Of a stretch of DNA of 64,000 bases, positions 7,452-33,421 are shown one piece after another. Numbering within the stretch: the stretch's first letter is position 1; every line of letters starts with the position of its first letter. The stretch lies in sequence record PZ445453.1. One strand, written 5' to 3'. The DNA comes from a phage. Made by a program: the position numbers and the translations under genes. A model generated the notes under the pieces. The model worked only from the letters and a program-made list of their open reading frames with translations. It searched no databases and was not told the origin of the DNA.

Positions 7452-7452
7452 T

Positions 7453-14968: not shown

Positions 14969-14985
14969 TTGGTTAAGTTTTACGG

Positions 14986-15262: not shown

Positions 15263-15311
15263 TTCATCCCAATCTTTCCAAACGCATCTACAAAGTTAAA
15301 CTCTAAACCTT

Positions 15312-16395: not shown

Positions 16396-16405
16396 GGTTT
16401 TCTCC

Positions 16406-16726
16406 TTAACAAGTAATATTGGGAATAATACTGGGAGTAACAATTGGAGTAATAGGGTACGTAAACCAAGGGCTTCCAATTTCCCAAGGACTATAAGGTG
16501 TACGAGGATCAAATGGAGGCGTTACTTGAGGCTTTTTCCACATCTCCGCTAGTTGTTTCTTCCATTTATCCCTTGCTGTATCGTTATCTTCATCCAACTG
16601 CTCGTCATTATCTTTTATTTCTGATTTTGGAAATAAAAGCTCTTTGACTAACTCAACGTCTTCCGTTTCAATAGTAGTTTCTTTCGTAATATTCCCTACC
16701 GTCTCTTTAATTGTGACTTTATACAT
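16406..16726 (-). CDS. hypothetical protein
   Basis: 106-aa ORF with GAGGAGG RBS. Confidence 0.45.
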   Translation of the reverse strand: MYKVTIKETVGNITKETTIETEDVELVKELLFPKSEIKDNDEQLDEDNDTARDKWKKQLAEMWKKPQVTPPFDPRTPYSPWEIGSPWFTYPITPIVTPSIIPNITC

Positions 16727-17472: not shown

Positions 17473-17795
17473 CTCTCCTCAAAATCCATAAGTATAAAGA
17501 TATTAACTTTACCTTCTATATTATGTTCTACAACAAGATCTGCAAATTCTTTGTAGGCTTTTTCTTCTATTTGTTCAATGTGAGACGCTACATCTTTGTA
17601 TATAGCGTCACCATCTACTTTAACAAGGAGGAATAGAGATCTTACTTCAATCTCTTTATTTTTGCGGGGTAGAAAATCGACGGCTTCTTGTATACGCCAG
17701 CCGAGATACCCTGGAGTCCTTTGAATATCCTCCAAATGACTTTCTAAGATTTCCCTTCCTTTGTCTATTAAAGCCTGTTCTGTCGTTATTTTCAT
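17469..17795 (-). CDS. hypothetical protein
   Basis: 108-aa ORF, ATGA overlap. Confidence 0.5.
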   Translation of the reverse strand: MKITTEQALIDKGREILESHLEDIQRTPGYLGWRIQEAVDFLPRKNKEIEVRSLFLLVKVDGDAIYKDVASHIEQIEEKAYKEFADLVVEHNIEGKVNIFILMDFEES

Positions 17796-17805
17796 CCCCT
17801 TCTCC

Positions 17806-18378
17806 TTAATGTGTTAATGAAACTGCGTAACTAAACACAGGTTCAGATATTACATCGGCTACAGTAATAAAAACGTCCTCATCTTGCGTTGTTTCTACAC
17901 GACATACAGTTACACCATTTACTACAAATTCAACGCAATGAGGAATATCTTCACAAACGAATGTAGTGTAAGTAACACCCAAAGCATCATACAAAGATTT
18001 AACAGTGTTTGCAAGTGCCGCAGTTTCTTCTTTTTCTGAGACAATGAATGCTGTAACAACAAGATTGTTTGCATAGTTTAGACTGTCCTCTATAGCCAAT
18101 GATTTACAAGGTAGTAATGCAAAATATTTACCTGGTTTAATCAGACCTGCTTCCCATTGATTCAAAATTGCTTGGGATGGTTTAGTAATATAAAACAGAT
18201 TTTCGCTTGGATTATCAATATTACTTCTGGCGATACAACGTGAAGGATTATTAATATCAAACACATGATCAAAATCTACACAAACTGGTAAACTGAAAGG
18301 TGTGAATTTTTTATCTAATAATCCTACTGCTGACAATATGTTTGCTGTGCTTATCTTCCCGTTAAAAGCTAAACGCAT
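17806..18378 (-). CDS. hypothetical protein
   Basis: 190-aa ORF. Confidence 0.5.
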   Translation of the reverse strand: MRLAFNGKISTANILSAVGLLDKKFTPFSLPVCVDFDHVFDINNPSRCIARSNIDNPSENLFYITKPSQAILNQWEAGLIKPGKYFALLPCKSLAIEDSLNYANNLVVTAFIVSEKEETAALANTVKSLYDALGVTYTTFVCEDIPHCVEFVVNGVTVCRVETTQDEDVFITVADVISEPVFSYAVSLTH

Positions 18379-18389
18379 ATTTAACTCCT

Positions 18390-18593
18390 TTAACTAGCAA
18401 CCGTAACTTCCGAACTTTCTTCTTTCGTACTGTCTACGATATGCCTGGTGGCAATATACGAGACTTGCCAGTTACCATCTGGTGTAGTCTCAATAAGTAC
18501 CCTATCTACTTCGAGAAAATGCAAAAATTCAACCATCGCTCGCTTCGATAGGAATTGTTTTTTAACAGTCTCCTCAAAAGATTGAACTGCCAT
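18390..18593 (-). CDS. hypothetical protein
   Basis: 67-aa ORF. Confidence 0.45.
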   Translation of the reverse strand: MAVQSFEETVKKQFLSKRAMVEFLHFLEVDRVLIETTPDGNWQVSYIATRHIVDSTKEESSEVTVAS

Positions 18594-18602
18594 GTTTCCT
18601 CC

Positions 18603-19265
18603 TTATTTAATATTCAATTTTGCACAAAGACGTTGTACCGCTTTGGCATCGAACAAACTCCCACGAATAGTTCTCTTTCCTGATTCATTCAGATGCTTTG
18701 CAATCGTCATATATGGCGTTTTACAAGCCCTGTATGCAACTAAAGAATCTTTTAAAGAAAGCGCAAACTCTTTTGAGCGTTTTGCTTCTTCCGTTTTCGT
18801 ATAATCTGTTCTTTTGTATTTAGGGTTTGCTGCACCAAGAAGCGTTCCCTTCGCTTTTGCTACCTTAAGGCTCTTCTTAACACGATCAGATATTGCACGA
18901 GCCTCTTCTTCTGCCAGAACTGCTAAAATATTTATTATCATATTTTCAGCGGAGGGCATCGTTGCTATTCGTACATTAATCATCTCTAACAAGGTTGCAA
19001 CAGAAGCTGTGTTACGTCCAAGACGGTCAACCTTAGCAACAACAAGTGTAGCACCTGTTTCTTTGCAAAGATTAACAGCTTTTACAAGCTCTCTACGTTG
19101 CTTCCAATCGCCTTTACCAGAATAAAACTCTGCAAAGCTACCTACAATAGTATAATTTTCTTGTGAATCCAGGAAGCGTTGGATATCTGCTTCCTGTGAT
19201 TCTATACCATACTGGTTGCCTTGTTGTTTCTTCTTAGAAAGTCGATGATACAGTACAAACTTCAT
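18603..19265 (-). CDS. serine recombinase (resolvase/invertase family)
   Basis: N-terminal YHRLS...Q with Ser nucleophile, VDRLGRN motif, C-terminal HTH-like segment. Confidence 0.75.
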   Translation of the reverse strand: MKFVLYHRLSKKKQQGNQYGIESQEADIQRFLDSQENYTIVGSFAEFYSGKGDWKQRRELVKAVNLCKETGATLVVAKVDRLGRNTASVATLLEMINVRIATMPSAENMIINILAVLAEEEARAISDRVKKSLKVAKAKGTLLGAANPKYKRTDYTKTEEAKRSKEFALSLKDSLVAYRACKTPYMTIAKHLNESGKRTIRGSLFDAKAVQRLCAKLNIK

Positions 19266-19322
19266 AATACCCTCCTGTTCTGTTACAGGAAGTATGCACT
19301 ACCTTAACGTTAAAGTCAACAG

Positions 19323-19538
19323 TTAAGTAGTGGTAATATCATCTTCTTGAATATCAGGATCAACTTCTGCAAAGATAGCTTCTACAGGAATTTCTTCACC
19401 TGCTATTCTAGAAAGAAGCACTGAACCAATAGCTTTTGCGTGTTCTTCGGATTCCGCATAAACATTAGTCCCTGTGTCTTTTTTCTTAGTTTCGTTAAAA
19501 TATACCAGATAGTAATTGTATGCCATTATTCTTCCCAA
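19323..19538 (-). CDS. hypothetical protein
   Basis: 71-aa ORF. Confidence 0.45.
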   Translation of the reverse strand: MGRIMAYNYYLVYFNETKKKDTGTNVYAESEEHAKAIGSVLLSRIAGEEIPVEAIFAEVDPDIQEDDITTT

Positions 19539-19777
19539 TCGTTGTTACGAGCATTTTCAAGAACCTTGACAACTTCTGCATACTCTACAGCTAAACCAGC
19601 ACACACTTCAGCTTGTTTTGCAATTGCTTGTTTAAAGAACATAGCGATTGCAACACTCTGTGTTGTGTGAATGTTATCTGCTTTAGTTGATACGTGAAGA
19701 TCAAAATCTTCTTCATCAAAGGTGAGTTCCATAGTAACAATAAATTTCTCGGTCATAAAAATGCTCCTCTTAAACAA
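19526..19777 (-). CDS. hypothetical protein
   Basis: 83-aa ORF. Confidence 0.45.
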   Translation of the reverse strand: MFKRSIFMTEKFIVTMELTFDEEDFDLHVSTKADNIHTTQSVAIAMFFKQAIAKQAEVCAGLAVEYAEVVKVLENARNNDWEE

Positions 19778-20279
19778 AATAGAAAGGTTGAGTTAAACCC
19801 AGCCTGTTTTTTGGGTCGTAGACGTACCAAGCATATGCTGTCTTATCAGTACCACCTGCAACAAAAGATGGTCGTTCAGAAAGAACAATCAAATTTGTTG
19901 GTGGATTCTGTTTATGGAATTCCCTTCGTTTAATAGACTCTAGGAACCCAAGACGCAACAAGTATATGCAAACGTCTGCTTCTTTTAAGCTCTTTTGCAA
20001 GAACTCAAGTGCAAGTCTGAATGGTGGATTTGTGATTATAATATCCGGCTTAGTATGCCATTCGTGGTTAAAATAATCCTTCCCTTCTTCTAACTCACAA
20101 TATTCTGATCCTTCTGGAAAATGTTGATAAATTGCAGCAGCAGCGCCTTTACACGGTTCTGCAAAAATAAAACCTTCTTCTTTAAGGTTATTAAAATCTA
20201 TTACACTAAATAATGCATTTATACATTTTTGTGGAGTAGGATAGTAATCAGTTGGTGGACGATCATACTTATTTGCCAC
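19770..20279 (-). CDS. putative DNA N6-adenine methyltransferase (small)
   Basis: IITNPPF (motif IV N/DPPF/Y) and EPCKGAAA (SAM-binding-like). Confidence 0.55.
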   Translation of the reverse strand: MANKYDRPPTDYYPTPQKCINALFSVIDFNNLKEEGFIFAEPCKGAAAAIYQHFPEGSEYCELEEGKDYFNHEWHTKPDIIITNPPFRLALEFLQKSLKEADVCIYLLRLGFLESIKRREFHKQNPPTNLIVLSERPSFVAGGTDKTAYAWYVYDPKNRLGLTQPFYFV

Positions 20280-20697
20280 TACTTAAAATCTCCTCTTTTG
20301 TGATTTCAGGGTTTTCTTCAAAAACCATAATATCTCTTAAGAACGTTAATTCTTCCATAGATACTGGTATTGTATCTTCTTCTGTTTTTCGTTTACATAA
20401 ATCGTCAAGAAAGTTTTTAATGTTTTCTGACACATCGTAAAATTTCAACAGTTGATAATCACAGGAGGAGATCCTATCTAGTTCTAACATCCTTTCTAAG
20501 ATATTTTCTGTGTTGCCGTACAACACACGAACTTCTCCGAAAGGGTTGACTAAATATTGTGAATTTCTAAACCATCCCTTTTTAGATACAGTGTAACGCT
20601 GTTCTGCTAAACTTTCAATAAAATTTTTAGCTCTTTTACAGTTTTGTTCTAAAGAGTAGTAGGCTTTTTCTACAAATATTACAGGTACTGGTAACAT
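20269..20697 (-). CDS. hypothetical protein
   Basis: 142-aa ORF; GGAGGA RBS. Confidence 0.5.
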   Translation of the reverse strand: MLPVPVIFVEKAYYSLEQNCKRAKNFIESLAEQRYTVSKKGWFRNSQYLVNPFGEVRVLYGNTENILERMLELDRISSCDYQLLKFYDVSENIKNFLDDLCKRKTEEDTIPVSMEELTFLRDIMVFEENPEITKEEILSSGK

Positions 20698-20737
20698 ATC
20701 TCCTCCTAATAACCCCCTTAAGGGGGTTTATGATAGA

Positions 20738-21391
20738 TTAATTATCAGAGGATACTTTATCAAGTTTTTCAGAGACTGTCAATACTTTTTCTTGTGATTC
20801 TTTCATTTCTGCTAAAATACTTTCAGCTTCATCACTATCAGGATCACCAGTCAACAGCATACTAATTAGTTGCTCCTTGCTGAAGTTGAGAATATCTTCC
20901 GCTGTTAACTCCAGTTGTTCTTCGATCTCTTCGATAAAAGTTTCACCGCCTGAAAAAGCATCTCGTAGTTTTGCAACTTCCATCGCTTCTTCTGGGGTTG
21001 CCCCAGCATCTAAAGCTGCTAAAGCAAAATCTGCCCCACTACCAACTGCATAATAATCTTCAGTTAAAGGATATGCTCGCGTTGGATTATTACCCTCGTG
21101 CATATAAATTTTACCGTCAGGGTGAACAACCAATGCCACAAACTCTTCATCTTCTTTATCAGGATCTGACTGGATCACCAAACCTGGGATTGTCTCTTGT
21201 GCTGCCTGGCATTGTAAGTTTTGTTCAAACCAAGAAAAGAAAGTCAGGATAGAAGATAGACGTCCTGCACCACCAACGAGGTAGTCCCCAATTTTACGCA
21301 CTTTCTTGAAATTTAAAGTGTCTACACGACTACCTACTGTTACTTTACCATCAGACAGAATTTTGTTACGTGTTGCAATAATTGTTGTCAT
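20738..21391 (-). CDS. hslV: HslV-like Ntn-hydrolase peptidase with C-terminal acidic extension
   Basis: M-TTIIA N-terminus (Thr nucleophile), KVRKIGDYLVGGAG, AVGSGADFALAAL align to HslV TTIVS / KVRRL...AGFAGG / AIGSGG blocks. Confidence 0.65.
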   Translation of the reverse strand: MTTIIATRNKILSDGKVTVGSRVDTLNFKKVRKIGDYLVGGAGRLSSILTFFSWFEQNLQCQAAQETIPGLVIQSDPDKEDEEFVALVVHPDGKIYMHEGNNPTRAYPLTEDYYAVGSGADFALAALDAGATPEEAMEVAKLRDAFSGGETFIEEIEEQLELTAEDILNFSKEQLISMLLTGDPDSDEAESILAEMKESQEKVLTVSEKLDKVSSDN

Positions 21392-21882
21392 TATACTTCC
21401 TCCTGTAGTGTTTTAAGGACTGCTTTACCACCGCTTACATATTTACGGAGATAATCAATAGCTCTTAGTGTTTCTTTATCCACAAGAATTTTATTAGTTC
21501 TTGTTAGTGGATGATTTAGTAAATCACTGCAATTTCTTACTAACATAGATTTCTTGTGAAAGATGCTGCTAAGAAAAAGAAGTTTACAATCTTCTTCATC
21601 AATTAGGAGTAATTCTGAATTAGACCCAGCTACATTTATTATACACTCAAACAAGCCTTCTTGACTATCAGATAATTCCTGGTAATATTTAGTTAGCCAA
21701 TCCTCTCCTTTCAACCAACTAAAAAACATCTGAACTTTTTGCAAAGTTGTCATGTTCTCTAAACGAAGAGATATTTCTTTTTCAATCTTGTCAATATAAA
21801 TCTGTCTAAACTCATTCGGCTTAACTAAGCCAGCTTGATAGCATTCATCAATACCATTGCGATCAATCTCAATTAGCGTCAT
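21391..21882 (-). CDS. hypothetical protein
   Basis: 163-aa ORF, ATGA overlap with HslV-like gene. Confidence 0.5.
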   Translation of the reverse strand: MTLIEIDRNGIDECYQAGLVKPNEFRQIYIDKIEKEISLRLENMTTLQKVQMFFSWLKGEDWLTKYYQELSDSQEGLFECIINVAGSNSELLLIDEEDCKLLFLSSIFHKKSMLVRNCSDLLNHPLTRTNKILVDKETLRAIDYLRKYVSGGKAVLKTLQEEV

Positions 21883-21918: not shown

Positions 21919-22671
21919 TTAATATACTTCCGTGATGAACTGAGACAAACGGGAACGTTGGTTATCAGCAGTTGTCATTTCAACATAACCAATAAAATCT
22001 ACAATAGCTTCCCTTTCTCCTTCTTCGTTAATAGGAACAACACGATCTAACAAATCACCTAACCCATTAGCTCTTCGTTTAATTGCATATGTTTGATTAA
22101 CATCGCCCATAATGACAATACGTGTATTAAGACCTGCTCGCTCAAGGAGAAGTTTTACTGTATTTGGTGACATAAGTTGAACTTCATCAATAAGAATAAT
22201 GCTGTTATCCCACGTAGCACCTAGTGCATAGTTTGGAATATTAAGTTCAATTTTGCCACTTGCAATATCGTTTTCCAATTTATTTGCAGTCATAAACTGT
22301 TGGAAAATTCTTTTAGTTGATTCGTAGTGTGCTGCTAGTTTATCAGTCTTATCTCCAGATAAGAAACCAATCTGATCATCACCTACTTCTGTCGGGTTTT
22401 TAAGGAAAATCAACTTTCTGAAGTCACCAGCTTTAAGCATTTGCAATGCTTTCCATAGTGCTGTTGTTGTTTTTCCTGTTCCTGCTGGGGCATTAACAAT
22501 GGTTAAATCATTCCAAACCATGCTTCTTACAATAGCTTCTTGATTCCCAACAGGGGTAAATTCATCAAGACGGTAATCATCATTTCCTACTGCTTTAGCC
22601 GCATAACGACTGGCACGTTTGTCATCATTGGCTGCTGATTGACGACGAGCCTTTGCGGTTTTATTTCCCAT
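21919..22671 (-). CDS. phoH: PhoH-like ATPase
   Basis: Walker A NAPAGTGKTTTAL and PhoH-like context. Confidence 0.85.
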   Translation of the reverse strand: MGNKTAKARRQSAANDDKRASRYAAKAVGNDDYRLDEFTPVGNQEAIVRSMVWNDLTIVNAPAGTGKTTTALWKALQMLKAGDFRKLIFLKNPTEVGDDQIGFLSGDKTDKLAAHYESTKRIFQQFMTANKLENDIASGKIELNIPNYALGATWDNSIILIDEVQLMSPNTVKLLLERAGLNTRIVIMGDVNQTYAIKRRANGLGDLLDRVVPINEEGEREAIVDFIGYVEMTTADNQRSRLSQFITEVY

Positions 22672-22685
22672 GTTTGCACTCCTTA

Positions 22686-22708
22686 TAAAAGGGGCTTTCG
22701 CCCCTTTG
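22686..22708 (-). terminator. intrinsic terminator (bidirectional-looking)
   Basis: AGGGGC-TTTC-GCCCCT hairpin with T-runs on both sides. Confidence 0.6.
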
Positions 22709-22709
22709 T

Positions 22710-23210
22710 TTAGTTATAAGCGTCTAATGTTCCAGTTTTAAGTACCTGAATTACACGCTCTGCGCGATTAGGCGTTTGGCGATACCATTTACTTTTACGT
22801 AAATTTATAGAGGCTTGAGTATAATATGAATTACTCACTAAAGTCAAGCTATTTTTGAAAGATTCTGCACCTTTCAATCCCATTTGAAATACCATATTAA
22901 TAATAGCCATTTTACGATTAGGACTTACTTTATCGTAAATAGGAGATAATATGGTACTTGAATGGATTTGTTGTATCGCTTTCTTTACGTCACTCTCAAA
23001 GATTTTTCTAGCTTCCGCTTCAGTAATAACTCCATTGGTTTTTCTACCTACTAAGTTATCAAGAATGCGTATAGCTTCTGCTTTATCTTTGAGTTTTGTC
23101 AGAAGGTGTCCAATACCAACTGTCCAATACCCTTCGGTATCAGGATATACAGTTAGCTTTAGTCCTTCATCAAAACGTAACATATCAAACACATCAACTA
23201 CTTTAGCCAT
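22710..23210 (-). CDS. endolysin, T4 e-type lysozyme
   Basis: Near-collinear with T4 lysozyme: DEGLKLTVYPDTEGYWTVGIGHLLTK, INMVFQMG, SRWYRQTPNRAERV. Confidence 0.9.
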   Translation of the reverse strand: MAKVVDVFDMLRFDEGLKLTVYPDTEGYWTVGIGHLLTKLKDKAEAIRILDNLVGRKTNGVITEAEARKIFESDVKKAIQQIHSSTILSPIYDKVSPNRKMAIINMVFQMGLKGAESFKNSLTLVSNSYYTQASINLRKSKWYRQTPNRAERVIQVLKTGTLDAYN

Positions 23211-23222
23211 GTTTTCCTTATA

Positions 23223-23366
23223 TTAGTCGCCCTCCCCATGATCTAGCTCTTGAAACAGTAGGTGTTCAGGAGACATTTCACGTTTAGGCTTCGTCTTTTT
23301 AGTTTGGGACTTAAGCTCTGTTGCCAAAGCACGAGAAAAGATCTTACGTTTTTGTTTACCTTTCAT
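23223..23366 (-). CDS. small basic protein (sub-threshold ORF)
   Basis: 47-aa Lys-rich ORF not in supplied track. Confidence 0.3.
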   Translation of the reverse strand: MKGKQKRKIFSRALATELKSQTKKTKPKREMSPEHLLFQELDHGEGD

Positions 23367-23370
23367 ATTG

Positions 23371-23637
23371 TTACTCCGCAATCTGAGCCATGAATTCACG
23401 TAGTTCAGAAAAACCTCCTACGTGGGTTAGCTGTTCACCATCTTCCACAAAAATCTGAGGGAATGTGCGTGGTAGAACACCTGTTTTCTCTAAAACCAGA
23501 TTCTGAATCTGATCTAAAGAATAGTCTTCATCTAAGGTAAGGTATTTAAAATCCTGTTCACGCTGTTCTAGTAGAATCTTAGCGTTAGTGCAGAAAGGAC
23601 AATTTGGTTTACCGTAGATAATAAAATTCATTTTCAC
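23371..23637 (-). CDS. glutaredoxin/NrdH-like redoxin
   Basis: CPFC active site near N-terminus, ~88 aa. Confidence 0.75.
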   Translation of the reverse strand: MKMNFIIYGKPNCPFCTNAKILLEQREQDFKYLTLDEDYSLDQIQNLVLEKTGVLPRTFPQIFVEDGEQLTHVGGFSELREFMAQIAE

Positions 23638-24464
23638 TCCTTGTTTAAAAGTATAGTTAAAGTTCTTACAATACCGCTGTCAACACTTCGCGGATTTAAA
23701 GTAGGATCTGTTTTTAAATAAGATGTTGCTGGTCTGACTGCTTTGGAATTATAGGTTGAAGCAGACACAGGATTAACTGTAACAGATAAATCTATAACAA
23801 GAAATATCTTTCGTGCAAAATCATACCAAGAAATATAATCTGCACCTGCATAGTGTACAATTTTACTGTTTACACCATCTTTTACAAGTTTAAAAATTGT
23901 TTCTGCAAGATCAGGTGCATAAGTAGGACATGATAAATGATCACATACTACATTAAATTCTTTTTGACCACCGTTGTAGCGTTCCAACATAGTTTTCAAA
24001 AAGTTATGTCCAAATTCACTATAAACAGAAGCTGTTCTGATAATAAGTGCTGTAGGACAAACTGTTTGTACTAAAGTTTCACCTAATTGTTTACTGTAAC
24101 CGTAGATGTTCAAGGGGTTTGTTTTACTGTCTTCTGTGCCAGCAACATTCCCATCAAAAACATAGTCTGTTGAAATATGTACAAACTGTATCAGTAAATC
24201 ATTACATGCTTTGGCAATGTTTGTTGCACCGTATGCATTAACATTTATACAGGTGTTAACATCTTCTTCAGCTTTATCTACTGCCGTGTAAGCCGCACAA
24301 TTCACAACAACATCAGGCATATGCTGTACAAGACTATCCATAACATCTTTAAAGTTGGTAATGTCTACATCACTTGCTTCAATCAAAATAACATCTTCGG
24401 GCGCAACTTTTGCCAAAGACTGTCCTAATTGACCTTTTGAACCAAAGACTAAAAATTTTGTCAA
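23634..24464 (-). CDS. rmlD: dTDP-4-dehydrorhamnose reductase
   Basis: N-terminal FGSKGQLG Rossmann motif, YxxxK, ~276 aa, directly downstream of rmlC. Confidence 0.8.
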   Translation of the reverse strand: MTKFLVFGSKGQLGQSLAKVAPEDVILIEASDVDITNFKDVMDSLVQHMPDVVVNCAAYTAVDKAEEDVNTCINVNAYGATNIAKACNDLLIQFVHISTDYVFDGNVAGTEDSKTNPLNIYGYSKQLGETLVQTVCPTALIIRTASVYSEFGHNFLKTMLERYNGGQKEFNVVCDHLSCPTYAPDLAETIFKLVKDGVNSKIVHYAGADYISWYDFARKIFLVIDLSVTVNPVSASTYNSKAVRPATSYLKTDPTLNPRSVDSGIVRTLTILLNKE

Positions 24465-25015
24465 AATATGATCTCCTTTAGTGTTTTGGCTTCCTGATCT
24501 TTTTGTGACAAGATAGGTTTAAAATTAATATCATTAAAGATTAAATCAAAACCCCAATCTATATTGATATCTGGATCATTCCACGCAAGACTACACTCTG
24601 AAGTCGGATCGTAATATTCTGTACATTTGTATTCAAAATCAGCAATATCGCTAATCACAACAAAGCCATGAGCGAAACCAGGAGGAATCCAAAATTGTGT
24701 TTTATTCTTTTCAGATAAGAGAACACCTACCCATTCTCCAAATGTTGGACTACCAACCCTAATATCTACAGCAACATCATAAACTTCACCACGAACACAA
24801 CGTACTAACTTCCCTTGTGGGTTTTTCTTTTGAAAATGAAGCCCACGTAGAACTCCTCGGATAGAACGTGAATGGTTATCTTGGACAAAGTTTTGTTTAC
24901 CTATGTATTGATCATATAAAGCCTGATTAAAACTTTCTAAGAAAAAGCCACGTTCATCTCCATAAACGTCAGGTTGAATGATCAACAAGTCTTCGATTTT
25001 TGTTGCTTGAATCAT
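24461..25015 (-). CDS. rmlC: dTDP-4-dehydrorhamnose 3,5-epimerase
   Basis: RGLHFQ cupin motif, ~184 aa. Confidence 0.85.
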   Translation of the reverse strand: MIQATKIEDLLIIQPDVYGDERGFFLESFNQALYDQYIGKQNFVQDNHSRSIRGVLRGLHFQKKNPQGKLVRCVRGEVYDVAVDIRVGSPTFGEWVGVLLSEKNKTQFWIPPGFAHGFVVISDIADFEYKCTEYYDPTSECSLAWNDPDINIDWGFDLIFNDINFKPILSQKDQEAKTLKEIIF

Positions 25016-25026
25016 TTAATTCCCCT

Positions 25027-25896
25027 TTATTTTAATTTAAGTAAATACTTACCGTAGTCTGTTTTACTTAAAACCTCTCCAGAACTTTTTACAGAATCTA
25101 AAGTAATCCATTCATTTTTAAAAGCAATCTCTTCCAGGCATGCAACCTTCATACCTTGTTGCTTCTCTATTGCATGAACAAATTGAGATGCTTCCATAAG
25201 ACTTTCATGTGTTCCTGTATCCAACCAAGTGAAACCTCTTCCTAGTTTACAGACACGTAAAGTCTTTTCTTTCCGGTACATCTCATTTATATCTGTAATC
25301 TCTAACTCCCCTCTAGCAGAAGGTTTAACGCTTTTAGCTTTCTGTATAACAGAATTATCGTAAAAGTACAAGCCTGTAACTGCATAATTGCTTTTTGGTG
25401 TTTTTGGTTTTTCTTCAATACTCACCACTGTACCTTCAGAATCAAACTCAACAACACCAAATCTTTCAGGATCATTTACGTGATACCCAAAGATATTAGC
25501 TCCACCATTCTTTTCAATATGTTCTTTAGCAGAATCTAAAATGCTACCAAAACTCTGACCAAAGAATAAATTATCACCTAGCACAAGTGCTACAGAATCT
25601 TCACCAATAAAGTTCTCACCAATAATAAATGCTTCTGCTAAACCTTTTGGGCTATTCTGTACTGCATACTGTAGGGAAATACCAAAAGAAGAACCATCAC
25701 CTAGAAGATTTACAAAATTAATTTGATCTTCTGGTGTTGTAATTATTAGTATTTCCCTAATTCCAGAAAGCATTAGGACAGAGAGTGGATAATAAATCAT
25801 AGGCTTATCATAAATTGGTAATAGTTGTTTACTAATCCCTTTAGTAACTGGGTAAAGTCTTGTTCCACTACCACCTGCTAAGATAATACCTTTCAT
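25027..25896 (-). CDS. rmlA: glucose-1-phosphate thymidylyltransferase
   Basis: [19 protein letters not shown]-terminus, ~289 aa. Confidence 0.9.
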
Positions 25897-25904
25897 ACTC
25901 CTCC

Positions 25905-26894
25905 TTAAACTTTATTTTCCCACCACTCTTTGTTATCTACATACCAATCAATGGTTGAATAAAGTTTTTCTTCAAATGTGCCTTTAGCTTTCCACCCTAA
26001 TTCCTTTTCAATCTTATAAGGATTCACTTCGTATCTTAAATCATGTCCAGGTCTATCTGTAACCATCTCAATAAGGCTACAAGCATCTGTTTCAGATGGA
26101 TACACCGCATCCATATAATCACAAATCATATAGATTACATCAATATTAGTTCTAGGGTTTCTGCTCCCAATATTATATGTTTCTCCAGATTTGCCTTTAG
26201 TTACTACTAGGTGTAATGCTTCTGCGTGATCGTCAACGTATAACCAATCTCTTACTTGAAGACCATTGCCATAAACAGGGATTGGTTTATGCATCAAGAT
26301 ATTTGTTATCGTTTTAGGTATTAGTTTTTCTGGATGATGATATGCTCCAAAATTATTTGAACAATTTGTTATAACTGTCGGAATACCATAAGTACGATGC
26401 CACGCTCTTACCAAATGGTCGCTTGCAGCTTTAGATGCAGCATATGGACTACTTGGCTTATAAGGATTCTGTTCTGTAAACGGATAATCCCCTTCTTCCA
26501 TATCACCATACACTTCATCTGTTGAAATATGATGAAACATTTTAAGATTTGATTTATCTCCCATTAAACGAACAGCTTCTAGAAGATTAAATGTTCCAAC
26601 AATATTTGAATTTATAAAAACACTCGGTGATGCTATTGAATTATCTACGTGACTTTCTGCTGCAAGATGCATTATATAATCTGGATTAACATCTGCCACA
26701 ATCTTAGCAGTTAACTGAGCATTTGTCAAGTCAACACGACAAAACTTTACATTAGGTGTTTCTGATAAATTTCTAGGGTCTGAAGCGTAACCCCATTTAT
26801 CTATAACGTAAATATCATTCTTAGTGTTTTTAGCCAGGAAACGAACTACCGCACTTCCAATAAAGCCTAAACCACCTGTTACTAAGTATTTCAT
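25905..26894 (-). CDS. rmlB: dTDP-glucose 4,6-dehydratase
   Basis: [23 protein letters not shown] (YxxxK), RPGHDLRY. Confidence 0.9.
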
Positions 26895-27088
26895 TTAGTC
26901 TCCTTCCAATTATTCCCTTCAGTAAAAACAATACCTTCATAAAATAACCATCTGGAACCTTTTTTAACAGGAACAGGAAGCTCTTCTTCAGTAAAGTTAT
27001 AAACCTCTCTAGCATCTTCTAAAAGTGATGCAAATGTTTTTGGACTTACTGTTACGCGAGGAGCATTGATCAGTTGATCTAGCATCAT
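26891..27088 (-). CDS. hypothetical protein
   Basis: Start trimmed to ATG 27088 preceded by AGGAGG. Confidence 0.4.
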   Translation of the reverse strand: MMLDQLINAPRVTVSPKTFASLLEDAREVYNFTEEELPVPVKKGSRWLFYEGIVFTEGNNWKETK

Positions 27089-27101
27089 TCTACTATCCTC
27101 C

Positions 27102-27428
27102 TTACCAAACGTGTTGAGAAATAATAGTTTCCGTTTCAATGTTATATTTTTCAAGAAGTTGTGCATAGGCTTCTTTTGCATTCTTATTTAGTTGCTCAAG
27201 ATCTACAGCTATACTTCCTTCGCCACCTTCTAAATAAATCCCATATATGCAATAAGATGCATCAGCGTCATAGAAAGGTGAGATACGGCTTAAATCAAGA
27301 CCTTCTTGTAAGAACCAATTAAAATCTCCATCAAATTCTTCTTCAATTCTAGGATCTTCTCCTACAGCCTCTTCCCATTTATTAAAAGGTGCACCCTGTA
27401 ACATACGCCATGCAATATCAACTCCCAC
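27102..27428 (-). CDS. hypothetical acidic protein
   Basis: 108-aa ORF. Confidence 0.5.
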   Translation of the reverse strand: MGVDIAWRMLQGAPFNKWEEAVGEDPRIEEEFDGDFNWFLQEGLDLSRISPFYDADASYCIYGIYLEGGEGSIAVDLEQLNKNAKEAYAQLLEKYNIETETIISQHVW

Positions 27429-27564
27429 TATCTTCCTCCTCTTCTTTTTCTTCTGTATGAACGAAACCTAAGCCGTTACAATTCCAACAAGGAATAAATT
27501 GTTCCATACTAACAATAAAATTCCCAGTACCACCGCAGATAGGACAAATGCTTACATCATCCAT
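27418..27564 (-). CDS. small zinc-ribbon protein (sub-threshold ORF)
   Basis: 48-aa ORF not in supplied track; CPICGG...CWNCNG. Confidence 0.3.
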   Translation of the reverse strand: MDDVSICPICGGTGNFIVSMEQFIPCWNCNGLGFVHTEEKEEEEDSGS

Positions 27565-27566
27565 TA

Positions 27567-27773
27567 TTAAAGCTCCTCAATCTTTTCTAACATCTGTTTT
27601 AACTCATTCTCTGTTAACAGAATTTCTGTGATACCATCATAAGTTTCTACCATCAGAGTAAAACATTTCTCTCCATCTGAACACACAAAAGCACCACCTT
27701 CATCTTCTGTTAAGTCAGAATTAATATCTACATCAACAAAATCAATCATCTTTTTCTCCTTTGATAATTTCAA
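27567..27773 (-). CDS. hypothetical protein
   Basis: 68-aa ORF. Confidence 0.45.
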   Translation of the reverse strand: MKLSKEKKMIDFVDVDINSDLTEDEGGAFVCSDGEKCFTLMVETYDGITEILLTENELKQMLEKIEEL

Positions 27774-27960
27774 ACTTGGCTACACCATTAACTATAATAT
27801 GACCGCAAGACATAACTCCTAGCCAATGATCACCATTCTTTTTTAAACGTTTACCGTAAACATCACAGAAACCATTCTGTAATTCGGAAGCCTCATAAGA
27901 GGCTCCCTTTTCGAAAACGTCTTTGAAGTCAGAAATTAATCCAACACAAAGTAGTTTCAT
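27742..27960 (-). CDS. hypothetical protein
   Basis: 72-aa ORF. Confidence 0.45.
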   Translation of the reverse strand: MKLLCVGLISDFKDVFEKGASYEASELQNGFCDVYGKRLKKNGDHWLGVMSCGHIIVNGVAKFEIIKGEKDD

Positions 27961-29045
27961 TAAAAGTCTAACTCCTCGTCATCACTTACATCTTTATTTG
28001 CTGAATTCAGTTTGTAAGCTGTAATTTGGATCTCCTGTGCTGCTGCTTGGATTTGATCTGGATTTAACCAAACATCCATCCAAGGCAGTGGACTTTTCTT
28101 CGGTGCACGGAATTTGTGTTTCATTTTCAGTCTGCGATAGATAGGAGCAGCATTGAAGTAAACCCAAAGTTTGAACAACTCTGCGTTACCACCAACGATA
28201 ATCCTTCCTTCACTAAACAGATAGTCACACCAATCTTCCTCTTGTCCAACTACCGTGTCAAGAATTTCTGTCAGAACGTCGATATTATCTTCGTATACTT
28301 TTCTCCAGACAGGATCTTTCAGCAGTGCATCAATAATAGCATAATCCATTTTAACGTGCAATAGTTCATCCAACATAATTTTTTGAATGAGTTTAGCTGC
28401 ACCTACAAACAGTTGCTGCTCTGCTAAGGCAAATGTTGCAGCAAAAGAGGATATGAATTGAATGCCTTCCAGACCGATAAGTGCAATCATGCCTTTCAGG
28501 ATCAGTAGACGAAGGTTATCATCCTTCTCAATCAGACCTAGAGCATATTTATGTCCTGCCTCTGCCAGATCACTCATTATCTCTTCAACTATACCCATCC
28601 TCTGGAAGATTCTTTCGTTCTCCATAATCTGATCGATAACTTCATTTGGATTAGGGATACACTGACGAATAATTTCAGAATATGTCAAAGCGTGTAAAAC
28701 TTCCATTTCTGATTGCTTCATCATCATTGCACATGCTTCGTTGTTGCTTAAAAATGGTGCAAACAAAGTGATGATTGATTTAGCAAGTGAATCATTTTCC
28801 CATTGGAAAGATAGGTTTTTGATCATAACATCATAGTTGCTTTTAGAACAAGCTACGAAATCTTTTCGTGTCTGATCTAAGTTTACTTCGTTTTCATCCC
28901 AATCTTGCTGTTTTTGTAGTTTGTACAGACGATGCATTTCTGGGTATGTTACATTAATAGAATCAAAAATACCTAACTGTTCTCCCAAAAATACAGGGTA
29001 GAAACCTTCTTTGTAAGTGTCGTTGTATAAGTTAATTGCTGCCAT
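27960..29045 (-). CDS. nrdB: ribonucleotide reductase class Ia small subunit
   Basis: Ferritin-like di-iron R2 pattern, 361 aa, adjacent to nrdA. Confidence 0.88.
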   Translation of the reverse strand: MAAINLYNDTYKEGFYPVFLGEQLGIFDSINVTYPEMHRLYKLQKQQDWDENEVNLDQTRKDFVACSKSNYDVMIKNLSFQWENDSLAKSIITLFAPFLSNNEACAMMMKQSEMEVLHALTYSEIIRQCIPNPNEVIDQIMENERIFQRMGIVEEIMSDLAEAGHKYALGLIEKDDNLRLLILKGMIALIGLEGIQFISSFAATFALAEQQLFVGAAKLIQKIMLDELLHVKMDYAIIDALLKDPVWRKVYEDNIDVLTEILDTVVGQEEDWCDYLFSEGRIIVGGNAELFKLWVYFNAAPIYRRLKMKHKFRAPKKSPLPWMDVWLNPDQIQAAAQEIQITAYKLNSANKDVSDDEELDF

Positions 29046-29367
29046 TTAAATCCTCCACAATATCACACATTGCTTTTATTGTATCAATGTGTTCTCTCTC
29101 CATACCATCCTCTAGGTAAGCCTTCTCTAATGCGTCCCATACACTCTTTGTGAGTAGTATAGTAACCTCTCCCTCATACCTTGCTCTGGTTAAAGCATAC
29201 CAGGTAGCTATGGGATCATTGGAAGCCCATATTTCAACACTGGAAAATTGAAAACCTGCAATATAATGACAACACCAATCGAATGTAAAATCTTTACTAT
29301 CTACCAGTGTATAATTTCCCCAGCGTCTTTGTGGTGTTGCTCCAGGTAATACAACTAATGTAGGCAT
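29032..29367 (-). CDS. hypothetical protein
   Basis: Start set to ATG 29367 preceded by AAGGAGGA, downstream of nrdA terminator. Confidence 0.45.
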   Translation of the reverse strand: MPTLVVLPGATPQRRWGNYTLVDSKDFTFDWCCHYIAGFQFSSVEIWASNDPIATWYALTRARYEGEVTILLTKSVWDALEKAYLEDGMEREHIDTIKAMCDIVEDLNGSN

Positions 29368-29382
29368 ATTCCTCCTTAAGAA

Positions 29383-29401
29383 AGGGGGACAAAGCCCCCT
29401 A
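29383..29401 (-). terminator. intrinsic terminator after nrdA
   Basis: GGGGG-ACAAAG-CCCCC hairpin; T-run on minus strand. Confidence 0.6.
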
Positions 29402-29407
29402 GTTTCA

Positions 29408-31669
29408 TTACATCTTACAAGCCTCACAACCGGATTCTTCATCCTCTTGAGCGAGGGAGGTTGCCGATTTTGTTCTGCTATTTAGATAATACAAAGATTT
29501 ACCACCAAGTTTTGCAAACTGAAGGATATATTGCATTTCTGATTTAATGGATAAACGACCACCTTCCATCTTAGAATAGTCAATCCACTTATCACATGAT
29601 GCACCTTGATCTAAGAATTTAGTCAATAGTCCATATGCTTCAGCCATATCTTTATCTGGCGTATCCCAAGCCGATTGGTAAATATCTTTTAGTTTATCGT
29701 AATCTGGCACAATAAACAGGACATTACCTTTTTGGCTTTGTTTATAAACTATAGTATCACGTACAGGATACACAGAGTTAGTCGTATTACTTACAAGACT
29801 ACTGGACTCATTTGGAGCAATAGCTGCTAATACGCTATTTCGGATACCACCTTGTGCAATGATATCTTGTCGTAAACCTTCCCAATCCATTTTAAGTTTA
29901 AAATTGCCAATATCGTCTACAGCTTTAGCGTAGGTATCAATAGGCAACCATCCTTCAGGCCATTTGGTTTTATGCATCCATTCTGCATTACCTTTCTCTT
30001 TTGCCAAACGAAGAGAAGCTCTTGCTAACCAATAATAATGTCTTTCTGCTAATTCGTGAATTAGTTTTTTGCCGTAAGGATCTGAATAAGTAACAAAATT
30101 ACTTGCCAGATAATGTGCAAGGTTTGTAATACCTACACCGATAGACCTACGTGCTTTAGCAGTGATTTCGTTATGTTTAAACGGATACTGCATTGTTTCA
30201 ATAACATTATCAATAGTTAGAACGGTATAATATGCAACATCTTCATATTCTTCTGGTGTAACACGACCAGCTACAATAGAAGACAGGAAGCATAATGCCA
30301 ATTCTTGATCTTCTGTATTCTCACCTGTGAAAAGATCAGTCATATTGTGAAATGCTTTCGTAGGTAAGAAAATTTCTTGGCACAAGTTTGACTGGTAAAT
30401 AACATCCTTAAACGGAGTATGCTTATTAGCATTATCCGCAAAGAACATATAAATACGTCCTGTCTCTGCTCTTTGTGTAATAATTTCTGCCAGAAGATCT
30501 CGTGCTTTTACAAACTTCTTCTTAATTCGTTTGCGACTAACTTTTTCATATACTTCTTCAAACTCTTCCTCGCTTTTATAAAGCGCCTCATAGAGTTCTG
30601 GTGCTTCGTCATAACTGACTAGCATCCAATCTTTACCTTTTGCTGCACGACGCAGGAAAGCATTGTTTACTACGATAGAGTAATCAAGTTTATCTACTCG
30701 TTTTTCACTAACAGTAGTTGGGTTTTTCAAACGTACCAGATCTTCAAAATCAGGTTCTAATATTGTAAACGTTACTGTTGCACTTCCACCACGACTTGCT
30801 TGTTTTGATGCTCCAACACTTGTCTCCATCCATTTCAGGTATGGTAAAAGACCACCGTGAACGATACGGTTATTCTTAACACCTTGTCCTGTAGCACGGG
30901 TTTGGAGGTTAACACCAATACCTGCATTATTCAATGTATATTCATGAGCAAGATAGTTAGCAATTGCTAAAGATTCTGCTGTATCATCTGCTCTAAACAG
31001 ACAACAAGAAGCACTACCTTTAATCTTAGTACGCAAAGTTGTTAAATAAGGCGATGGTAAATTAATCTTGAGATCACTTACGTAGGTATATAGACGTTTA
31101 ATGTCTTCTACTCTGCGATCTTTTGGTTGAATTTCCATTACCTTCATTGCTACACCAATGAATAAAAACTGTGGTGATTCAAAAACAACATCATTGATCG
31201 CATCTTTCACAAGATACTTATCAACCATCTGGCGCAGTACGGAATAACCATAAGTTAGGTTTTTATCGTGATTGACAATTTTACCAATCTCAATAATTTC
31301 TTCTTCTGTATAATCCATTTTTCCCCAATAGCCTTTACTTACAGACATATTGTAGAAATCCAGGAGGGAGGGGATATTATGATATCCCCCATGAGCCTGT
31401 TTATAAATCATACCAAGAAGTAACCGACCTGCCATATCACTATATGCCTGATCTTTCTTATCAATACATGCTGCTATCATAGCTTTATGTAAATCACGAG
31501 TAGGCACACCGTCGTAACAACGTTTAACAGCTTCGAGTTCAATTTCAGACCAATTTAATTTACCAGCAGCAAACTCTGACCATTTACGAAGTTTTTCTGG
31601 ATTAAATTCTTCTTTCTTGCCGTTTGTTTTTGTTACATAACGGATAGATTTGCTTAGATACTGAGTCAC
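29408..31669 (-). CDS. nrdA: ribonucleotide reductase class Ia large subunit
   Basis: 753 aa, N-terminal ATP-cone-like region, C-terminal CEACKM redox cysteines. Confidence 0.9.
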   Translation of the reverse strand: MTQYLSKSIRYVTKTNGKKEEFNPEKLRKWSEFAAGKLNWSEIELEAVKRCYDGVPTRDLHKAMIAACIDKKDQAYSDMAGRLLLGMIYKQAHGGYHNIPSLLDFYNMSVSKGYWGKMDYTEEEIIEIGKIVNHDKNLTYGYSVLRQMVDKYLVKDAINDVVFESPQFLFIGVAMKVMEIQPKDRRVEDIKRLYTYVSDLKINLPSPYLTTLRTKIKGSASCCLFRADDTAESLAIANYLAHEYTLNNAGIGVNLQTRATGQGVKNNRIVHGGLLPYLKWMETSVGASKQASRGGSATVTFTILEPDFEDLVRLKNPTTVSEKRVDKLDYSIVVNNAFLRRAAKGKDWMLVSYDEAPELYEALYKSEEEFEEVYEKVSRKRIKKKFVKARDLLAEIITQRAETGRIYMFFADNANKHTPFKDVIYQSNLCQEIFLPTKAFHNMTDLFTGENTEDQELALCFLSSIVAGRVTPEEYEDVAYYTVLTIDNVIETMQYPFKHNEITAKARRSIGVGITNLAHYLASNFVTYSDPYGKKLIHELAERHYYWLARASLRLAKEKGNAEWMHKTKWPEGWLPIDTYAKAVDDIGNFKLKMDWEGLRQDIIAQGGIRNSVLAAIAPNESSSLVSNTTNSVYPVRDTIVYKQSQKGNVLFIVPDYDKLKDIYQSAWDTPDKDMAEAYGLLTKFLDQGASCDKWIDYSKMEGGRLSIKSEMQYILQFAKLGGKSLYYLNSRTKSATSLAQEDEESGCEACKM

Positions 31670-31680
31670 TTCCTCTCCTA

Positions 31681-31941
31681 TTAATTGTGCATGTTTAGAA
31701 CATCTACATCATAACCGCCACGCATCTCATTATATAAGCCATTTGCGTATAGAAAACCTTCAAAATGATCTATACCTTCAAAACCTTTTGCCTTTGCTTT
31801 GCGGTCTGCTTCTTGTCTTTTTGGGGATAATCTTTTAGATGTATCAAGGATAACTGTTACATTGCAACCTAATGTTTCATCAAAATAGACTTCAATTTCA
31901 CAGCCTTCATATTTATTACTTTCTGTCATTTGGCCTCTCAA
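31681..31941 (-). CDS. hypothetical protein
   Basis: 86-aa ORF. Confidence 0.5.
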   Translation of the reverse strand: MRGQMTESNKYEGCEIEVYFDETLGCNVTVILDTSKRLSPKRQEADRKAKAKGFEGIDHFEGFLYANGLYNEMRGGYDVDVLNMHN

Positions 31942-32352
31942 TTAGAATTCAGAATCATCATCTCGTGATGGATCATGTTCATTTCCGAAGTCTTCCATTT
32001 TGATATGAGAGCTACCCCAACCTGTAAAATCTTCTTCTCCAAAGTGCAAAATATCTACACCTTGATAGATTCGTTTATATTTATAGTCCTGTCGAACTGG
32101 GAAAGTATACAATGTAGTATTTGCAAACACCACACGTCGATTGTTGTTACTACGAATATTAACACCACGTTCTACTGTATAATGTCCATCGGTAGACATA
32201 CCAAGCATTACTAATGCTGCTCGCAATGTAGTGTTATGATATTCGTGAGGAATTTTTCCTCCGTGTTTTTTAGCCATTTCTTTCCAGATCGGTGTAGCCT
32301 TAATGGTAGACATACTTACGGTCGCCCAAATGGTTGTATTAATTAGTGACAT
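31942..32352 (-). CDS. hypothetical protein
   Basis: 136-aa ORF. Confidence 0.5.
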   Translation of the reverse strand: MSLINTTIWATVSMSTIKATPIWKEMAKKHGGKIPHEYHNTTLRAALVMLGMSTDGHYTVERGVNIRSNNNRRVVFANTTLYTFPVRQDYKYKRIYQGVDILHFGEEDFTGWGSSHIKMEDFGNEHDPSRDDDSEF

Positions 32353-32449: not shown

Positions 32450-33421
32450 TCACCATTTTGTATGGTTAGTCAAAAGTTGACGATGTTGAATCCAACCACA
32501 GAAGTTTCCACTCCACAAACGATGTTTACGATCCATATGTGTAATACCTTCTTCCCAAGAGGAAGGGAACGGAGGAATATTAATACCACCTTTCTGTTGT
32601 TTTAATCCTGACAAATCCATTTCTTTCATTGGCGTTGCCTGGTGTTCAAACGGAGATGCATGTACCTTTTGTCCAGACAGCAAACGAGAATAGATATCCA
32701 ATGCTTTATCTTTAGTATCATTCAACTTACGATAACTTACCTGAGCGCAACAAGAAGCTGAAATAGCTTTTGCTTCATCTTCTGTCAACATTTTCTCGTT
32801 GGAGAAGGTTTCACCCAAGAAATAACGGATCATACCAGTTTCTGGATCTCGATCACGATTAACGTAAGGTGTATGCCACTCCCCTGGGAAAAGAAGATAT
32901 GGTTCAGAAGATTCATACAGTTTTTTAATTTCTTTAGCAAGAGCCTCAATAGTAGGATCTGCATCAGCATCTACACGCAACCACAAGAAGTTTTCTAATT
33001 CTGTAGTGGTTACTACAGTCTTCATACGCTGGAATGGTTCTAGTAGTCGGTTTGCAACCTGTTTATGATAACCAGCAAGGGCAAACTCTTCTGCAAAACG
33101 TGCAGCACTTAGCGCAGCCAAGTCCCACCATTCTTTTGCAGTGTAACCTGCATCAATCAGGGCATCGTGATCTGTGCCTTTATCTTGCATACCTGGTTGG
33201 TTAGCACCAAAACGATAAGGACGTGCTGGAGATTGCCGTACCATTTCAATTAGAGTTTTAACAGGGATAGCTCGACTTGATGCAGCATTACGAGAAAACA
33301 AACGATGCGTCATCAATTCAGAGTGAATGATTCGAGGATATTCAAGTTCAAAGGTAACAATATCCTTACCTTCAGATGTTTGAGAGTGTGCAATAATTTT
33401 TGCTGAAATAGAATCTGTCAT
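32450..33421 (-). CDS. thyX: flavin-dependent thymidylate synthase (ThyX-like)
   Basis: MTHRLFSRNAASSRA resembles ThyX RHR...S.R signature. Confidence 0.65.
   Translation of the reverse strand: MTDSISAKIIAHSQTSEGKDIVTFELEYPRIIHSELMTHRLFSRNAASSRAIPVKTLIEMVRQSPARPYRFGANQPGMQDKGTDHDALIDAGYTAKEWWDLAALSAARFAEEFALAGYHKQVANRLLEPFQRMKTVVTTTELENFLWLRVDADADPTIEALAKEIKKLYESSEPYLLFPGEWHTPYVNRDRDPETGMIRYFLGETFSNEKMLTEDEAKAISASCCAQVSYRKLNDTKDKALDIYSRLLSGQKVHASPFEHQATPMKEMDLSGLKQQKGGINIPPFPSSWEEGITHMDRKHRLWSGNFCGWIQHRQLLTNHTKW

Follow-up and report, generated by a model that had tools for sequence, protein, structure and literature searches.

Why a phage should make its own activated rhamnose is the question raised by a block of four consecutive minus-strand genes, rmlB, rmlA, rmlC and rmlD, which together with a following glutaredoxin gene occupies positions 23371-26894 of a 64,000-nucleotide stretch of phage DNA (record PZ445453.1; the whole stretch is called the window hereafter). 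A sequence-only reading of the block had put forward three possible uses for a complete deoxythymidine diphosphate (dTDP)-L-rhamnose pathway, namely the glycosylation of phage DNA, the glycosylation of virion proteins, or the remodelling of host surface polysaccharide. Positions 23200-27200 of the window are 100% identical to Escherichia phage JohannJBalmer (Bas62; MZ501084.1), a Justusliebigvirus of the subfamily Stephanstirmvirinae that is related to phage phi92 and has E. coli K-12 as its isolation host. Our comparisons indicate that the pathway is very probably functional and part of the phage backbone, its enzyme activity being judged from the protein sequences, and that among the three uses virion glycosylation appears the best supported and DNA glycosylation the least.

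The four reading frames are intact and all four products, encoded on the minus strand, score above the curated NCBIfam equivalog cut-offs. RmlB (dTDP-glucose 4,6-dehydratase, 329 amino acids (aa); 25905-26894) reaches 441.7 bits against TIGR01181 (cut-off 365.1 bits), has Salmonella RmlB 1g1a as its best solved-structure match (E 1.2e-116) and keeps the TDE and YxxxK signatures of a short-chain dehydrogenase/reductase (SDR), as TDEVYG at residue 125 and YAASK at residue 151. RmlA (glucose-1-phosphate thymidylyltransferase, 289 aa; 25027-25896) scores 474.5 bits against TIGR01207 (cut-off 360.65), aligns over its full length with its best structural match, Salmonella RmlA 1iim (E 5.5e-125), and carries the G-G-x-G-T-R-L type motif as GGSGTRL at residue 8. 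For RmlC (dTDP-4-dehydrorhamnose 3,5-epimerase, a cupin of 184 aa; 24461-25015) the score is 259.8 bits against TIGR01221 (cut-off 155.75), with Salmonella RmlC 1dzr as best match (E 6.5e-64) and RGLHFQ at residue 57. RmlD (dTDP-4-dehydrorhamnose reductase, 276 aa; 23634-24464) scores 254.9 bits against TIGR01214 (cut-off 224.05); its best structural match is the RmlD chain 3sc6 (E 5.2e-45), ahead of Salmonella 1kbz, and it has STDYVF at residue 98 and YGYSK at residue 121. The alignments with solved Rml enzymes run over the whole length of all four proteins and the Pfam assignments are concordant, so that the complete and consecutive rmlB-rmlA-rmlC-rmlD set claimed by the sequence-only reading is borne out, catalytic motifs included. 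Its remark that such a set is unusual in a virus was equally sound, with RmlC homologues in 170 of 50,697 phage records, most of them within the Stephanstirmvirinae.

In regards to the origin of the cluster, the order nrdA-nrdB-small open reading frames (ORFs)-rmlB-rmlA-rmlC-rmlD-grx-small ORF-endolysin-phoH recurs in Phapecoctavirus ukendt and in DIJ07P1, as well as in metagenomic relatives as distant as L180, whose NrdB is 70% identical, and the position of the rml genes is constant in every Stephanstirmvirinae clade examined. The clusters of phi92 and phAPEC8 are orthologous and syntenic and represent the same feature. Identity is 96-100% within Justusliebigvirus and 55-71% at the protein level against Phapecoctavirus. 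The phage Rml proteins are nearer to one another than to the Rfb proteins of E. coli, most clearly so for RmlD, which shares 55-62% identity with other phage proteins and only 33-37% with E. coli RfbD. The GC content at third codon positions (GC3) of the four genes, 0.20-0.24, is close to that of nrdA (0.25) and phoH (0.24), and the overall GC content of the cluster is 0.35 versus 0.43 for an E. coli rfbBDAC cluster. Every one of 5,426 complete E. coli genomes contains sequence matching the rml query, but the best DNA identity is ~65% and none of the matches covers 80% of the cluster. The phage set comprises the same four enzymes as the enterobacterial RmlABCD (RfbABCD) set, above the equivalog cut-offs, with the motifs kept and with full-length alignment to Salmonella RmlA, RmlB and RmlC. 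However, it is encoded by a lytic phage, it lies directly downstream of ribonucleotide reductase genes with the order B-A-C-D rather than the B-D-A-C of E. coli, and no O-antigen glycosyltransferase, flippase or polymerase gene is adjacent to it.

Judged by this synteny, sequence divergence and base composition, the rml cluster is phage backbone, long resident in the phi92-like and phAPEC8-like phages of the Stephanstirmvirinae, and a host-derived insertion, which the sequence-only reading had named as the outcome that would overturn it, is rejected. That the cluster is recent passenger DNA from a host, with no role for the phage, is scarcely credible: the 65% identity of RmlA to E. coli RfbA and the 56.5% of RmlB to RfbB would speak for it, but the frames are all intact with phage-like GC3, the position is the same in all clades examined, the gene order differs and no E. 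coli genome exceeds ~65% DNA identity.

Several relatives carry a truncated pathway. In Klebsiella phage KP13-26 (same subfamily; L006, L008-L010) the rml site is occupied by rmlC (78% identical) and rmlD (61%) alone, and a tblastn search of the whole 144-kb genome found neither RmlA nor RmlB; the nrdB-rmlC-rmlD junction is common to KP13-26 and the phages FKP3, KP2025 and phi1_175008. A metagenomic relative, L177 (IMG/VR 3300030441_000047, a 148.7-kb contig), has rmlA-rmlC-rmlD without rmlB at the same locus. We assert the loss of rmlA or rmlB only where the whole genome (KP13-26) or the syntenic junction was checked. A widespread loss of rmlA, as might be read from the tblastn counts (88 Escherichia phage records for RmlA versus 106 for RmlC), was considered and rejected, since DIJ07P1 has RmlA and was nevertheless missing from the RmlA counts, which makes these record totals unreliable.

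RmlC and RmlD catalyse the rhamnose-specific steps of the pathway, and enterobacterial hosts make dTDP-4-keto-6-deoxyglucose through RffH and RffG for the enterobacterial common antigen (ECA). The matches present in all E. coli genomes would fit a supply of the early intermediates by rffH/rffG or rfb genes of the host. Since the truncated relatives keep rmlC-rmlD, whose substrate the hosts make, the comparison points to the end product, dTDP-L-rhamnose itself, as the constant requirement, and the four-gene set of the coliphages can be read as conferring independence from the host serotype.

The putative users of this donor are glycosyltransferases (GTs). The sequence-only reading recognised none in the window, and this holds: there is none in the GenBank annotation, none by Pfam scan among the 16 window-encoded hypothetical proteins of >=~110 aa, and the GTs found elsewhere in the genome have no tblastn match in the window at E <= 1. 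These are four putative GTs, bas62_0046 to bas62_0049, at MZ501084.1 44550-47726, ~67 kb from the rml genes, where they adjoin a primase/helicase gene and lie near the DNA polymerase gene. All four match PHROG glycosyltransferase families (E 2.5e-79 to 7.4e-149). The products of bas62_0046 and 0047 are paralogues (40% identical) with the GT-B-type Pfam matches Glyco_trans_1_2 and Glyco_trans_1_4; apart from Glyco_trans_1_2, the Pfam matches of the GTs are weak, and NCBIfam gave no match for any of the four. The predicted models of 0048 and 0049 (pLDDT 88.6 and 92.2) have GT-A folds with DxD motifs, and the motifs FDDD and LRDxDT do not vary within the aligned families. Their fold neighbours in the PDB include STIV A197, the dTDP-rhamnose-dependent RmlT of Listeria and SpsA, all of them generic GT-A proteins, and a fold search against viral predicted structures likewise returned only generic viral GT-A proteins. 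PDB sequence searches with GT0046, GT0048, GT0049 and a GT-B family profile gave nothing meaningful. None of the four has a predicted transmembrane segment (maximum Kyte-Doolittle 19-residue mean 1.21), and they are predicted to be soluble.

KP13-26 retains, alongside rmlCD, orthologues of 0047 (66%) and 0049 (75%) with the adjacent 89-aa gene, and another part of its genome has a gene distantly similar to 0048. A GT-B search of the phage genome collection returned 142 records, nearly all from the Stephanstirmvirinae. The Vequintavirinae are among 740 tail-sheath matches but not among the RmlC or GT-B matches listed, and for this reason appear to lack both the rml and the GT sets. Just past the GT genes, at MZ501084.1 ~50-59 kb (L003, about 400-9100), lie genes for TerC, TelA, a vWA-TerF-like protein, a ComF-like phosphoribosyltransferase (PRTase), a HAD hydrolase and a Macro protein, with a NADAR/YbiA-like protein further along at ~78 kb; genes for TerD and vWA-TerF adjoin the GT genes in the relatives L029 and L022 as well.

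The same GT families occur well outside this group. In the protein collection 423 homologues of the GT-B family were found, and IMG/VR has at least 545 stretches homologous to it. In ~40 of 78 IMG/VR loci a GT0048-like gene, a GT0049-like gene or both stand directly beside the GT-B gene. By this recurrent linkage the three families are a mobile cassette found in unrelated phages, and it is widespread among those that infect Gram-negative bacteria. A temperate, siphophage-like prophage of Enterobacter huaxiensis (GCA_024915035.1; L011 7797-10921) has all three together with an SDR gene, in the order endolysin, GT0049-like (45%), SDR, GT0048-like (39%), GT0047-like (46%), HNH, terminase, capsid and portal, and E217/Pa193-like myovirus contigs have holin, GT0048-like, GT0047-like, terminase, portal and capsid genes in succession. 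Outside the Stephanstirmvirinae the cassette usually stands beside late-gene regulators and lysis, terminase, portal and capsid genes. In a Pfam census of 107 neighbours at 16 diverse loci the families met were mostly NinG, antiterminator Q, large terminase, portal, prohead protease and lysozyme; replication proteins were met three times, most likely at the loci nearest to this phage group. The best NCBIfam family of the prophage SDR is dTDP-glucose 4,6-dehydratase (179.6 bits, below the 365.1 cut-off), and a homologue of this SDR lies inside the cassette at the IMG/VR locus L030. The cassette is therefore linked, in no fewer than two independent settings, with 6-deoxyhexose nucleotide chemistry.

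We propose that during infection the Rml enzymes would convert glucose-1-phosphate and dTTP to dTDP-L-rhamnose regardless of the O-antigen type of the host; that RmlA consumes dTTP is probably why the rml genes sit by nrdA/nrdB, ThyX and Tdk. The soluble phage GTs, GT-A 0048/0049 and GT-B 0046/0047, would take up this donor and transfer rhamnose to a phage virion protein, and the result would be a rhamnose-containing glycan coat like those of chloroviruses and Che8-type mycobacteriophages. That the dTDP-L-rhamnose is used by the phage's own GTs is, on balance, probable. The explanation as a whole, with backbone pathway, own GTs and virion glycan coat, is a credible one that falls a little short of an even chance, and the more specific proposal, that phi92-like and phAPEC8-like virions carry rhamnose glycans built in the cytoplasm by the mobile GT cassette while rml secures the donor in any host, is possible but decidedly tentative.

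The association of the cassette with late and head genes in other phages favours a virion acceptor. GT0048 matches 51 mycobacteriophage records, among them Cheoctovirus Bobi, to the N-terminal part of whose large GT (gp102; ~26% identity, E ~5e-7) it is distantly homologous, and GT0046 is a distant homologue of a GT encoded near the left genome end of Streptomyces phage Zuko. The likeness to the Cheoctovirus (Che8-type) system thus lies in phage-encoded GTs, one of them distantly homologous; in contrast, the hosts of Che8-type phages are actinobacteria, and Che8-type mycobacteriophages are not known to encode a sugar-nucleotide pathway of their own. Capsid glycans occur in Che8, the type phage of Cheoctovirus, and in Rita, according to the summary given in PMC11256854. 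Among viruses that do make their donor, chloroviruses combine rhamnose synthesis with rhamnosyltransferases for capsid glycans, and PBCV-1 encodes 6-deoxyhexose nucleotide synthesis, including that of rhamnose, together with cytoplasmic rhamnosyltransferases for its major capsid protein (PMC7019647). However, PBCV-1 is a giant virus of eukaryotes using GDP- and UDP-linked sugars, and the enzymes are not orthologous.

Several observations weigh against virion glycosylation. Both the link between rml and the GTs and the nature of the acceptor are steps that we infer. In the Stephanstirmvirinae the GT genes adjoin replication genes and not structural ones, and among 78 GT-B and 80 RmlC loci of IMG/VR none outside the subfamily had rml genes and the GT cassette within 10 kb, so that the cassette does not generally need rhamnose made by the phage. 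The co-conservation of rml and GTs in one subfamily may represent a single ancestral event. The GT-A fold matches are generic (TM about 0.4-0.5) and uninformative on donor or acceptor, and the head modules of the phages that carry the cassette are unrelated, with different terminase and portal families, which makes a protein-specific acceptor awkward. Because the GTs of the subfamily lie among replication genes and rml is never beside the cassette elsewhere, we give a virion protein as the acceptor somewhat less than even credence.

As to individual virion proteins, the tail sheath (MZ501084.1 10170-11576) ends in a Ser/Thr/Asn-rich tail (..NRTANSQNSNSSTVSS), and a tail conserved in this Ser/Thr-rich character occurs in JohannJBalmer and in the Klebsiella phages KP13-26 and 05F01. 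We rejected it as a candidate acceptor, a further point against the virion proposal: Phapecoctavirus DIJ07P1 lacks it in spite of having the GTs, and it is partly present in the Vequintavirinae, which appear to have none of them. The major capsid protein of phi92 (Phi92_gp124) is contained in PDB entry 21uy (E 6.1e-220 against the JohannJBalmer protein), and our literature search found no paper on this structure.

A different cytoplasmic acceptor is the competing possibility that survives best, although we still regard it as unlikely. It could be a host or phage protein outside the virion (compare the arginine rhamnosylation of elongation factor P (EF-P) by EarP), an RNA or a small molecule such as the predicted nucleoside-like product of Ter-linked genes. 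The GTs are predicted to be soluble and are encoded in a non-structural region beside the TerC, TelA, TerD/vWA, ComF-like PRTase, HAD and NADAR genes, the Ter adjacency recurs in the relatives L029 and L022, and the fold data leave the acceptor unconstrained. However, the GTs have no specific similarity to EarP or to a small-molecule GT, NCBIfam being silent here as well, and outside this phage group the cassette comes without Ter genes and beside head genes.

Remodelling of the host envelope seems distinctly unlikely. The GTs would add rhamnose units to ECA, to lipopolysaccharide (LPS) or to another lipid-linked glycan, and so block superinfection or help progeny to avoid debris. The GT-A fold neighbours do include transferases for wall teichoic acid or polysaccharide (RmlT, TarP, WrtF), and ECA synthesis (rff/wec) shares the dTDP-4-keto-6-deoxyglucose intermediate, as is textbook knowledge. 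ECA is moreover the apparent primary receptor, with the LPS core as the secondary one (PMC8594841), and hyaluronan synthesis by chloroviruses offers the example of a lytic virus that coats its host (PMC7019647). Yet the phage is strictly lytic, and the company of late and structural genes that the cassette keeps elsewhere would leave little time to alter a surface that already bears old glycan. The Pfam scans of the GTs and 46 further proteins detected no flippase, initiating transferase or membrane Gtr-type protein, and the GTs have no transmembrane segment that could be predicted. Gtr-type seroconversion offers no match, neither a GtrA flippase, a GtrB nor a serotype-specific GT family having been found in these scans and the GTs lacking a hydrophobic segment.

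Glycosylation of phage DNA, an idea of Olsen et al. 2020 (PMC7552041), supposes that rhamnose is placed onto modified bases for the evasion of restriction, like the glucosyl-hydroxymethylcytosine of T4. It would fit the location of rml among nucleotide-metabolism genes and of the GTs beside primase/helicase and near DNA polymerase, and GT0048 has weak, sub-threshold local matches to the Pfam family TAGT (TET-associated glycosyltransferase; E 6.8e-5) and to PHROG 842 (beta-glucosyl-hydroxymethylcytosine alpha-glucosyltransferase; E 5.2e-5). However, at 23.3 bits the TAGT match does not reach its cut-off of 27.5, and it is confined to residues 16-75. No ThyA-type hydroxymethylase (PF00303), TET/JBP dioxygenase or hypermodifying family was detected in the 46 proteins scanned (>=~110 aa) or in the annotation, and the sole thymidylate-synthase-like protein is of the ThyX type. 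Two adenine methyltransferases are encoded, as expected of otherwise ordinary DNA. In a lambdoid-type prophage the same cassette follows the Q antiterminator and lysis genes, just upstream of the terminase, and we know of no precedent for DNA glycosylation in prophages of this type. The T-even DNA glucosyltransferases resemble the present case in that the GTs lie among genes of DNA metabolism, but T4 uses the UDP-glucose of its host and makes no donor of its own. Finally, the phi92-like phages of the BASEL collection, Bas62 included, are 'exceptionally susceptible' to restriction-modification systems (PMC8594841). Taken with the failure to detect a base-hydroxymethylating enzyme, this makes DNA glycosylation quite improbable, and virion glycosylation the more likely of the two.

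Very improbable is a purely metabolic diversion, in which RmlC and RmlD would drain dTDP-4-keto-6-deoxyglucose from ECA or O-antigen synthesis, or the pathway would buffer the dTTP pool, with no phage rhamnosyltransferase involved: the conserved rmlC-rmlD minimum does act at the branch point common to ECA synthesis and ECA is apparently the receptor (PMC8594841), but many hosts, E. coli K-12 among them, express RfbC and RfbD anyway (a host rfbBDAC set occurs in E. coli), a waste of dTTP would hardly be expected of an AT-rich phage that has ThyX, Tdk and two ribonucleotide reductases, and the conserved GT set would have no role.

The rml cluster of this phage is not new, since it is annotated in GenBank, for JohannJBalmer and for dozens of related phages, and is discussed in PMC7552041 and PMC8594841. 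That phapecoctaviruses and phi92-like phages possess a dTDP-rhamnose pathway in complete form was noted by Olsen et al. 2020 (PMC7552041). The DNA-modification idea was taken up again by Maffei et al. 2021 (PMC8594841) and by Vitt et al. 2024 (PMC10844046), who also recorded the restriction sensitivity. Our literature search found no experimental work on its function and no dTDP-L-rhamnose assay for any phage of the subfamily. What is added here are the putative partner GTs, the rmlCD-only and rmlACD variants, the apparently portable GT cassette that favours head-gene neighbourhoods, and the case for virion over DNA glycosylation. If virions do carry rhamnose, therapeutic coliphages that are widely isolated would have a glycan coat, and their recognition by antibodies, stability, and binding to mucus and surfaces may change, as reported for mycobacteriophages; phi92-like and phAPEC8-like coliphages have a broad host range and are candidates for therapy. 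Glycosylated virions would then also be known for the first time outside the actinobacteriophages, and the trait would be one that is common among phages but has been overlooked. Rhamnose on the DNA would amount to a novel type of DNA modification, oddly one without protection from restriction. The natural rmlCD-only and rmlACD variants and the portable GT cassette provide ready comparisons on what the rhamnose is for.

Regarding the neighbourhood of the cluster, the sequence-only reading placed a glutaredoxin gene after rmlD and NrdAB, ThyX and Tdk next to the block, and the Pfam matches agree, the latter genes lying upstream. The glutaredoxin (grx, 88 aa; 23371-23637, minus strand) matches PF00462 (E 9.4e-12) and scores below the NCBIfam cut-offs, and it follows rmlD in every relative examined (ukendt, DIJ07P1, KP13-26, L177, L179 and L180). 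Its position and family make it more likely a reductant for NrdAB than an enzyme of the sugar pathway. There are 4-base overlaps between rmlC and rmlD, between rmlD and grx, and between an upstream small ORF and rmlB, and downstream of rml and grx are the endolysin and PhoH genes. Upstream of rmlB, also on the minus strand, are the class I ribonucleotide reductase genes nrdB (27960-29045; Ribonuc_red_sm) and nrdA (29408-31669; Ribonuc_red_lgC/lgN and ATP-cone). Since there is no excess of terminator-like sites from nrdA to the endolysin gene, the rml genes, nrdA and nrdB probably form one transcription unit. In a promoter and terminator scan of window 22500-32000 the numbers of sites were not above those in shuffled sequence, and the scan adds no information on timing.

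Further upstream, and again on the minus strand, are three genes for thymidine-nucleotide supply, as judged by Pfam. ThyX (323 aa; 32450-33421) scores 37 bits against Thy1 (cut-off 24.8; E 3.9e-9), but the match is restricted to positions 59-186 of the 191-position profile, which marks the protein as divergent within its family. Between ThyX and Tdk lies a gene for a 196-aa protein (33431-34021) resembling NT5C, the deoxypyrimidine 5'-nucleotidase family, at 23.2 bits, below the 24.8 cut-off. The thymidine kinase gene tdk (34005-34568) has a Pfam TK match with E 4.2e-54.

The window as a whole corresponds to positions 90312-144831 of MZ501084.1, where the record ends, followed by positions 1-9481. 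At window position 36931 it has one base fewer than the record (record 127242, CCATTCAT -> CCATCAT), which is either a variant or a sequencing difference; the missing base reduces to 302 aa a putative 5'-exonuclease ORF (36881-37789, minus strand) that is 345 aa long in the record. Five records labelled 'Campylobacter phage' (MG065639, MG065645, MG065656, MG065689 and MG065650) are 98% identical to the E. coli phage group of JohannJBalmer, and these host labels look wrong. Elsewhere in the window, in the regions 46900-53500 and 13500-21400, are the NAD-salvage genes for a PRPP synthetase-like protein and NAMPT, an array of 14 tRNA genes interrupted by a homing endonuclease gene, and genes for a sirtuin, two small aminoacyl-tRNA-synthetase-like ORFs and an HslV/proteasome-like protease.

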